This document shows, one piece after another, positions 5,152 to 5,424 of a DNA stretch of 9,889 nt. Origin of the DNA: Escherichia coli (GTDB lineage Bacteria > Pseudomonadota > Gammaproteobacteria > Enterobacterales > Enterobacteriaceae). The stretch is from NCBI RefSeq assembly GCF_003334785.1, contig NZ_QOWV01000033.1. The stretch is one strand, 5' to 3'. Within the stretch, counting starts at the first letter, position 1; each line of letters opens with the position of its first letter. Below the pieces are notes generated by a model. It was not told the origin of the DNA. It worked only from the letters and a program-made list of their open reading frames with translations, and searched no databases. A program made the translations under genes and the position numbers.

Positions 5152-5244
5152 AACTGATCCTGTGTCTCACTTTTATGTATTTTTATCTAACTATAGCACA
5201 AATATGAGTAGCATAGAAAAATATATAAAACTTATGTGTCGAGC

Positions 5245-5424
5245 ATGAAACTATTCCATTATTACTCATATAAAGCATCAAGGGCTGAAAAGGTTTGTGA
5301 TTACTCTCAAGCAGCTATATTGTGGGCCAAGGCTGCTTTATTTTCAGAAAAATCTATAAATAAAGAATGGTCCTTATGGAGGAAGGCATTTTGTGAAAAA
5401 AAAGCAGAAAATGATGACCGTTAA
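5245..5424 (+). CDS. Candidate ANR (AraC negative regulator, Aar/Rnr-like) small protein; alternative GTG start at 5236
   Basis: 59 aa from ATG 5245 (62 aa from GTG 5236): MKLFHYYSYKASRAEKVCDYSQAAILWAKAALFSEKSINKEWSLWRKAFCEKKAENDDR. Small, Lys/Ala-rich, likely helical, with a W..A...W..R..C pattern that I recall for ANR proteins. It sits next to an Rns/AggR-family gene, which is typical ANR context. Weak Shine-Dalgarno. Not confirmed by search. Confidence 0.45.
   Translation: MKLFHYYSYKASRAEKVCDYSQAAILWAKAALFSEKSINKEWSLWRKAFCEKKAENDDR

Follow-up and report, generated by a model that had tools for sequence, protein, structure and literature searches.

An ANR-family anti-activator gene beside Rns-like and Rob-like regulator genes in a fimbrial island of Escherichia coli

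Introduction

The AraC Negative Regulator (ANR) family has been known since 2014, and its members act against virulence in diarrhoeagenic bacteria by restraining adhesin and toxin-associated regulons. Here we describe a gene of this family that lies at positions 5245..5424 on the plus strand of a 9,889-nucleotide stretch of Escherichia coli DNA (contig NZ_QOWV01000033.1 of assembly GCF_003334785.1), in the company of genes for an Rns-like and a Rob-like regulator; the whole stretch is called the window below. ANR proteins are smaller than 10 kDa, with a range of 4.4–9.5 kDa (PMC10148876, PMC4983702). The family has been described as having three predicted helices and a signature of A10, E14, A22, W26, A29, W43 and R47, followed by an aromatic residue and a cysteine, and in the family member Aar (AggR-activated regulator) mutations at A14, E18, A26 and W45 (Aar numbering) abolish activity (PMC4983702).

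Aar binds residues 69–181 of the activator AggR, disrupts its dimerization and prevents its binding to DNA (PMC4983702). Another member, Cnr-2, binds Rns, CfaD, AggR and ToxT; of 17 AraC proteins tested, 11 interacted clearly with it, and an aar mutant is complemented by ANRs of distant clusters (PMC4983702). According to published accounts, ANRs with an identity of only ∼25% to Aar remain functional and can be exchanged for it, and Aar and Rnr (RegA-negative regulator) also bind H-NS and Ler. In enterotoxigenic E. coli (ETEC), ANRs repress cfaD and its regulon, and the ANR gene is divergent from the gene for the Rns-class activator itself (PMC4038620). The AggR-dependent promoter consists of the sequence WWWWWWWTATC placed 21–23 bp upstream of the −10 hexamer (Yasir et al., PMC6392122); the mapped aafD promoter carries GTTTATTTATC together with TAGCAT, and a similar site has been predicted for aar (PMC6392122).

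Results

The initial annotation had singled out a small helical open reading frame (ORF) as a candidate ANR. A profile search agreed with this proposal, the ORF matching the NCBIfam model NF033650 (ANR_neg_reg) with 51 bits against a curated cut-off of 32 (E = 9.5e-14) over profile positions 2–53 of 54. We aligned 14 sequences, namely the window protein, Aar, three ETEC ANRs, one Salmonella ANR and database relatives, and found that A11, E15, A23, W27, A30, N39, W42, R46 and C50 were invariant in a core without gaps, with F49 an invariant or near-invariant aromatic residue before C50. All seven published signature residues were matched in the window protein, and the equivalents of the Aar positions A14, E18, A26 and W45 were kept. 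The AlphaFold2 model built from this alignment was confident (predicted local distance difference test (pLDDT) score, 95.9) and contained three helices, at residues 3–16, 20–32 and 37–57, in keeping with the small helical protein that had been proposed; the mass of 7.06 kDa fits the published family range. The identification is correct but already known. The identical protein, WP_106421907.1, is encoded on two E. coli IncFIA plasmids (NZ_AP022179.1 and NZ_CP069544.1), one of them carrying eatA, and RefSeq names it “ANR family transcriptional regulator”, so that identifying the ORF as an ANR adds little to the existing label. The locus is rare, being found in 2 of 5,426 complete E. coli genomes, in both cases on these plasmids.

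The relatives used here came from an exhaustive representative search; a word-indexed homologue search returned only near-identical fragments. A sequence search of the PDB with the ANR protein gave no match even at E <= 10, and the PDB contains no ANR structure. Foldseek comparison of the ANR model with the PDB returned only non-significant matches to TPR/MIT-like three-helix folds (E > 0.25). As a separate observation, phmmer with the ANR protein matched long proteins of 510–1,713 residues (P0004, P0009, P0010 and P0014) in 2–6 stretches each, with E = 5e-9 to 7e-4, and ANRs may be stand-alone TPR-like repeats.

The initial annotation had described a Lys/Ala-rich ORF of 59–62 residues. The mechanical ORF list gives 5236..5424 on the plus strand, opening at an in-frame GTG at 5236 and encoding 62 residues, and the quoted string AAILWAKAALFSEKSINKEWSLWRKAFCEKK is present in it. 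The RefSeq start is the ATG at 5245, and this ATG is the sole start codon kept in all relatives of the gene, the upstream codons being out of frame or not start codons. Because of both observations the likely product has 59 rather than 62 residues; the ORF, the string and the composition stood, and the length is corrected to the lower value. The protein from the ATG has a pI of 9.2 and contains 9 Lys and 9 Ala among its 59 residues. Compared with a 64%-identical relative, the gene had a ratio of nonsynonymous to synonymous substitution rates (dN/dS) of 0.28 and 0 indels over 53 aligned codons, and indels were present in the intergenic DNA beside it. Intact orthologues were found at 89%, 64% and 53% identity. 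On this comparative evidence from sequence, the ORF is a real gene of translated type and a true family member.

Near its 3′ end the gene contains a poly-A run (5397–5404) that has eight residues (A8) in the window and seven (A7) in the 89%-identical orthologue (loci L011 and L013 of the lineage survey described below). The difference shifts the frame after ...FCEKK and leaves tails that are wholly unlike, AENDDR and QKMIASLT. The tail past the conserved Cys may be dispensable, or the A-run may be a slippage-prone tract.

The presumed target and inducer of the ANR is a 269-residue activator of the Rns/CfaD/AggR class, encoded at 3470..4279 (plus strand), 966 bp upstream of the ANR start. Its full-length identity is 41.5% to CfaD, 40% to AggR and 35% to VirF, and phmmer matched it over residues 13–268 to the sequence of the Rns crystal structure 6xiu at E = 1.3e-58. 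Identity to AggR rises along the protein, from 23% (AggR 1–68) through 35% (69–181) to 58% (182–265); over the last segment it is 58–60% to AggR and CfaD, and both helix-turn-helix (HTH) segments align closely with those of the two activators. The homology therefore runs over the full length, including the N-terminal domain, and takes in the double HTH, as is characteristic of the Rns/CfaD/AggR subgroup, and the description of this neighbor as Rns-like holds at 40–41% identity. The association of ANR genes with a virulence activator of the AraC/XylS family is likewise seen here, the Rns-like gene lying near and a Rob-like gene directly adjoining.

The directly adjoining gene (4327..5151, minus strand) is transcribed divergently from the ANR gene, as had been noted, across an intergenic region of 93 bp. 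It encodes an AraC-type regulator of 274 residues with a double HTH at the N terminus and a GyrI-like domain at the C terminus, which is the architecture of Rob. Pfam HTH_18 and HTH_AraC matched residues 24–108, and the AlphaFold2 model (pLDDT, 88.5) matched E. coli Rob (1d5y_A) over its full length in Foldseek (E = 3.6e-16; TM score, 0.73), in agreement with the earlier description of this protein as Rob-like. The two RobA models have cut-offs of 380 and 426 bits and scored only 96 and 86, so we regard the protein as Rob-like in fold and not as a Rob orthologue. Activator, anti-activator and sensor-type regulator, which the initial annotation had placed in about 2 kb, all lie within 3470–5424, or 1,955 bp.

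The ANR gene is preceded by a putative box for the Rns-like activator, GTATTTTTATC (5177..5187, plus strand), which consists of an A/T tract and TATC with one mismatch to WWWWWWWTATC. The −10 hexamer TAGCAT (5209..5214, plus strand) follows 21 bp past the TATC box, and there is no −35 element; transcription is predicted to start at about 5221. The box closely resembles the functional aafD site and shares with aafD both the −10 hexamer and the spacing. From the start of the −10 to the ATG there are 36 nt, compared with 36–44 nt in eight other ANR genes. The same composite of TATC box and −10 was found directly 5′ of eight other ANR genes, these being the scanned genes that satisfied the composite rule: aar, the cfaD-adjacent and csvR-adjacent genes, another ETEC gene, a Salmonella plasmid gene and those of L011, L006 and L023. 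This recurrence is the independent support for the site. The window box is kept in L011 and L006, and in L014, where the ANR copy is disrupted by IS200, the TATC box has decayed to TATGTC. A promoter scan of 5100–5700 found no canonical sigma-70 −35/−10 promoter, as expected if the ANR promoter is activator-dependent. The evidence for control of the ANR gene by the Rns-like protein is this conserved AggR/Rns-type promoter architecture, which suggests that such control may exist.

Applied to both strands of the window, the AggR rule gave 8 matches against 2.5 expected. Four of the 8 were intergenic and pointed to the adjoining gene, these genes being those for the ANR, the Rns-like activator, the fimbrial chaperone and the fimbrial major subunit. 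A candidate auto-activation box of the Rns-like gene, AAAAAAATATC (3386..3396, plus strand), is followed after 22 bp by GATAAT (3419–3424); it is kept in L005/6, L011/13, L014, L016 and L019, and a composite arose in 1.8% of shuffles of this upstream region. At the start of the fimbrial operon the chaperone gene has the TATC box GTTTTTTTATC (9490..9500, minus strand), then 22 bp and TATTGT (9467–9462), and here a composite arose in 1.3% of shuffles. The major subunit gene has the same box, GTTTTTTTATC (6215..6225, minus strand), then 21 bp and TATCAT (6193–6188). The pattern GTWTTTTTATC occurs in three copies in the window against 0.01 expected, each copy lying upstream of and facing a gene, with unrelated flanks. 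The output is a testable regulon map with four TATC-box promoters.

The region between the usher and subunit genes also contains a hairpin rich in GC, GCCCCTT AAGT AAGGGGC, with A/T-rich sequence after it (6160–6180, minus strand). The hairpin comes after the predicted internal promoter of the subunit gene and before the start codon of that gene, and attenuation, termination or stabilization of the mRNA are possible roles for it.

We surveyed lineages by searching with the Rob-like protein, inspecting the contigs and running the ANR profile hidden Markov model over them, which yielded nine lineages. An intact ANR gene was found divergently upstream of a Rob-like homologue in seven of them (the window; L011-13; L005/6; L019 from Citrobacter; L020/21, a chromosomal E. 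coli locus; L022; and L023 from Yersinia). In one further lineage (L014/15) the ANR gene is truncated by IS200, and in the last (L016-18) it is absent. The Rob-like homologues in these pairs are 40–100% identical. An Rns-like gene adjoins in eight of the nine lineages, including both without an intact ANR, and none adjoins in L020. One relative, P0003, has the same three-gene arrangement with 64% (ANR), 75% (Rns-like) and 74% (Rob-like) identity; its cargo comprises EamA, an Aat-like transporter, a dispersin/CexE-like gene and a serine protease autotransporter of the Enterobacteriaceae (SPATE). Because ETEC ANRs pair with the Rns-class activator, the ANR/Rob-like pairing sets this ANR subgroup apart, and as a conserved arrangement it looks undescribed.

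The two predicted promoters of the divergent pair overlap. A putative extended −10 of the Rob-like gene, TGCTATAGT (5190..5198, read 5198->5190 on the minus strand), falls within the spacer between box and −10 of the ANR gene, and the activator box at 5177–5187 covers the predicted start site of the Rob-like gene (∼5183). The element, TGnTAnnnT, is the reverse strand of a conserved TAGCAC. Eight lineages have it at 39–49 nt from the start codon of the Rob-like gene (besides the window, L006, L011, L014, L019, L020, L022 and L023). We also considered TAGCAC as a mar/sox/rob box on account of its GCAC core and rejected it, as the sequence departs from the marbox consensus outside that core. An extended −10 function fits better, given the constant distance to the Rob-like start codon and the TGnTAnnnT reading of the reverse strand. 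The overlapping geometry suggests that expression of the ANR and Rob-like genes may be mutually exclusive or coupled.

The Rob-like gene also occurs with the Rns-like gene, the ANR gene or both, in varied combinations, beside a dispersin/CexE-like gene and an Aat-like transporter and not beside fimbriae. This was seen in L005 (contig of GCA_007463835.1), L006, L016-18 and L020/21, with a SPATE in L005, and the regulator cassette appears to move between virulence cargos. No composite promoter was found 5′ of the dispersin gene within the L005 sequence examined.

Downstream of the ANR gene and convergent with it lies a fimbrial operon on the minus strand. It encodes a major subunit of 168 residues (5623..6129; CS15/CS22/SEF14 family in the RefSeq annotation, with weak SafA/SefA matches), an usher (6231..8687; ORF list and RefSeq annotation) and a periplasmic chaperone (8671..9435; RefSeq start ATG 9435, preceded by AGGAGG). 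The subunit gene is a putative member of the regulon. In 72,556 PLSDB plasmids no other copy exceeded 49% identity to the major subunit, and the nearest was on CP049615.1, which also carries aar. Within the CS15/CS22/SEF14 family, the chaperone-usher-subunit cluster (5623–9435) is a rare variant. No gene for an AfaD-like minor subunit is evident in the window cluster, unlike the CS22-like cluster of enteroaggregative E. coli (EAEC; PMC7500659). Divergent from the operon and upstream of it, we noted an ORF of 42 residues (9639–9767, plus strand) with a signal-peptide-like start, MNKTLAILLFSVSFSAYA...; it had no NCBIfam match and no coding sequence in the RefSeq tables, and it may be a gene fragment.

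The ANR gene is separated from the convergent subunit gene by a remnant of the right end of IS200C, ∼150–165 bp long (about 5455–5620, plus strand), which begins 30 nt after the ANR stop and is ∼90–93% identical to the 3′ end of IS200C copies; such copies are present in about half of complete E. coli genomes. The initial annotation had seen a strong terminator ahead of which the ANR gene ends. A terminator-like hairpin with a T-run is indeed found downstream (GC stem 5569–5587, T-run 5588–5593), but it stands about 145 nt past the ANR stop and belongs to the IS200C remnant, not to the gene. It lies 30 nt after the fimbrial subunit gene and is flanked by A- and T-runs. It was missed by the terminator scan and confirmed by folding, with −22.6 kcal/mol on the plus strand, −18.2 on the minus strand and z = −6.6, and it can act in both directions.

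Other marks of mobile elements were observed. In L014/L015 a full IS200 in the opposite orientation sits inside the ANR gene and truncates it after ∼17 codons, a Y1 transposase being called in L015, which suggests that the ANR spot has been hit repeatedly by IS200. Elsewhere in the window an IS3-family transposase gene is split by a group II intron (139–402, 994–2517, 2521–2607 and 2670–3086). Within the intron, an ORF for a reverse transcriptase/maturase (TIGR04416, 336 bits) precedes a match to Rfam Intron_gpII (64.9 bits), and the ORFs flanking it match IS3 profile positions 161–225 and 247–368.

Discussion

Taken together, these data make it likely that the ANR acts in a negative-feedback loop on the neighboring Rns-like activator, that is, that the published ANR loop has been transplanted to this island. 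The 269-residue activator would bind A/T-tract and TATC boxes 21–22 bp upstream of weak −10 elements without a −35. It would thereby switch on its own gene, the fimbrial operon (from the chaperone promoter and the internal major-subunit promoter) and the ANR gene. Accumulated ANR would then bind the central dimerization region of the activator and block its dimerization and DNA binding, so that the whole regulon would be damped; like Aar, the ANR might also bind H-NS. Activator bound at 5177–5187 would at the same time occupy the predicted Rob-like start site, which could tie the switching-on of the ANR gene to silencing of the Rob-like one. To the family membership, coding status, fold, promoter motifs with their conservation, and synteny observed in the present analysis, this loop adds protein-protein binding, regulon repression and activator dependence of the promoters, which we infer from the work on Aar, Cnr and Rnr.

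Several observations weigh against the loop. The window ANR is just 38–46% identical to the studied ANRs, and the putative ANR-binding region of the 269-residue activator is just 31–35% identical to AggR and CfaD, so cognate specificity cannot be assumed. Binding to this activator, the effect on the fimbrial genes and the activator dependence of the promoters are all extrapolated from other systems. At the promoters, a composite arose in 10% of shuffles of the AT-rich 150 nt upstream of the ANR gene, the TATC boxes of the more distant ANR/Rob-like loci L019, L020 and L022 fail the spacing or −10 rule, and the GTWTTTTTATC pattern was set after the matches had been seen. The Shine-Dalgarno sequence of the ANR gene is weak (GAG). 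Finally, the gene immediately paired with the ANR by conservation is the Rob-like and not the Rns-like gene, which makes a different or additional ANR partner possible. The inference of feedback is nevertheless reasonable despite the low identity, because ANRs are broadly cross-reactive.

The last of these points leads to the strongest of three alternatives, in which the protein descends from ANRs but has the Rob-like protein, H-NS or both as its main or as an additional partner; the ANR/Rob-like pair would then be the functional unit and the Rns-like gene a frequent but dispensable companion. The seven divergent pairs among nine lineages, including that in L020 with no adjoining Rns-like gene, fit this arrangement, as do the overlapping promoters, the binding of H-NS and Ler by Aar and Rnr in the published accounts cited above, and the broad binding of AraC proteins by Cnr-2. 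We nevertheless consider it unlikely, since in the Rob architecture the DNA-binding domain is N-terminal and the protein is without the N-terminal and central part of Rns-type activators, the part to which Aar binds in AggR, no report of an ANR binding a Rob/MarA/SoxS-type protein was found in the ANR papers examined, and an Rns-like gene adjoins in eight lineages, two of which have no intact ANR.

Less probable still is that the ANR gene is carried along as a passenger, decaying or silent, in an island riddled with insertion sequences and, though intact in sequence, is no longer expressed or needed. The split IS3 transposase gene, the IS200C remnant 30 nt past the ANR stop, the IS200 truncation in a sister lineage, the absence of the ANR from another and the weak Shine-Dalgarno sequence would all be at home in such a history. 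Set against them are an intact ORF with every invariant residue present, purifying selection on the gene, and a promoter box and −10 that are kept in three diverged lineages, which together make the idea quite improbable. That the ORF is not an ANR at all, being instead a PerC-like activator (its sole Pfam match is PF06069, at an independent E value of 0.067 and 13.9 bits) or a chance ORF, as a short frame in AT-rich intergenic DNA might be, is effectively refuted, because the ANR model cut-off was surpassed by 19 bits, the PerC match is far below significance, and the conservation, dN/dS and confident fold disfavor chance.

With feedback by the ANR on the Rns-like activator as the favored reading, the consistent ANR/Rob-like pairing and the promoter overlap suggest a three-component circuit in Escherichia, Salmonella, Citrobacter and Yersinia. 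Acting at one box, the Rns-like protein might induce the ANR and block the Rob-like gene, or the Rob-like protein might be a further target of the ANR; in both cases, an input that senses small molecules would be tied to AraC/ANR feedback. We put this circuit forward as a tentative and somewhat doubtful proposal. No such three-regulator wiring was found described in the ANR papers examined, and a search by the RefSeq accessions of the four proteins found no mention of them in the library searched.

The ANR studied here is an ordinary family member within a modestly interesting conserved three-regulator module. Its pairing with an activator in a rare, eatA-carrying plasmid island helps to predict the expression of an uncharacterized fimbria of the CS15/CS22/SEF14 type. 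The present analysis adds to the existing label the regulon map, the ANR/Rob-like pairing with overlapping promoters, and corrections of the start codon and of the origin of the terminator.

Among the known systems, Aar (orf60 of EAEC strains 042 and 55989) resembles the window ANR in its family model, its invariant residues and its three-helix prediction, with 65 residues compared with 59. Its gene likewise lies in a plasmid-borne island with an AggR/Rns-class activator, a chaperone-usher adhesin and a SPATE, and is preceded by a TATC box 21–22 bp upstream of a −10. The two proteins differ in sequence, being 46% identical over 50 residues and 39% over the full alignment, and in their neighbors, which in the 55989 locus are aap and aggR with no Rob-like gene. 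Function has been shown for Aar, whereas that of the window ANR is assigned by analogy. Rnr of Citrobacter rodentium and enteropathogenic E. coli belongs to the same family and has the same proposed anti-activator role, but it is larger, at 8.5–9 kDa, and falls in Clade-2 (PMC10148876). The work on Rnr shows that ANRs with only ∼25% identity to Aar are functional and exchangeable.

The ETEC ANRs of the Cnr-1/Cnr-2 type, which are encoded divergently from cfaD/rns and csvR, share with the window an ETEC-type plasmid, a divergent AraC-family gene and the same promoter architecture, and are 38–44% identical to the window ANR. At those loci the divergent neighbor is the Rns-class activator, whereas in the window a gene of Rob architecture takes that place and the Rns-like gene lies beyond it, tail to tail. 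Closest are the uncharacterized Rob-paired ANRs, which have the same divergent ANR and Rob-like genes, usually a convergent Rns-like gene, and fimbrial or dispersin/Aat cargo nearby. Their identity to the window ANR is 89% for L011-13 (Salmonella-labelled or metagenomic), 64% for L005/6, 53% for L020, 39% for L023 (Yersinia) and 38% for L019 (Citrobacter). They differ from it in their C-terminal tails and in their cargo, which consists of Pap-like fimbriae or of dispersin with an Aat-like transporter and a SPATE, in place of the CS22-like fimbriae of the window.

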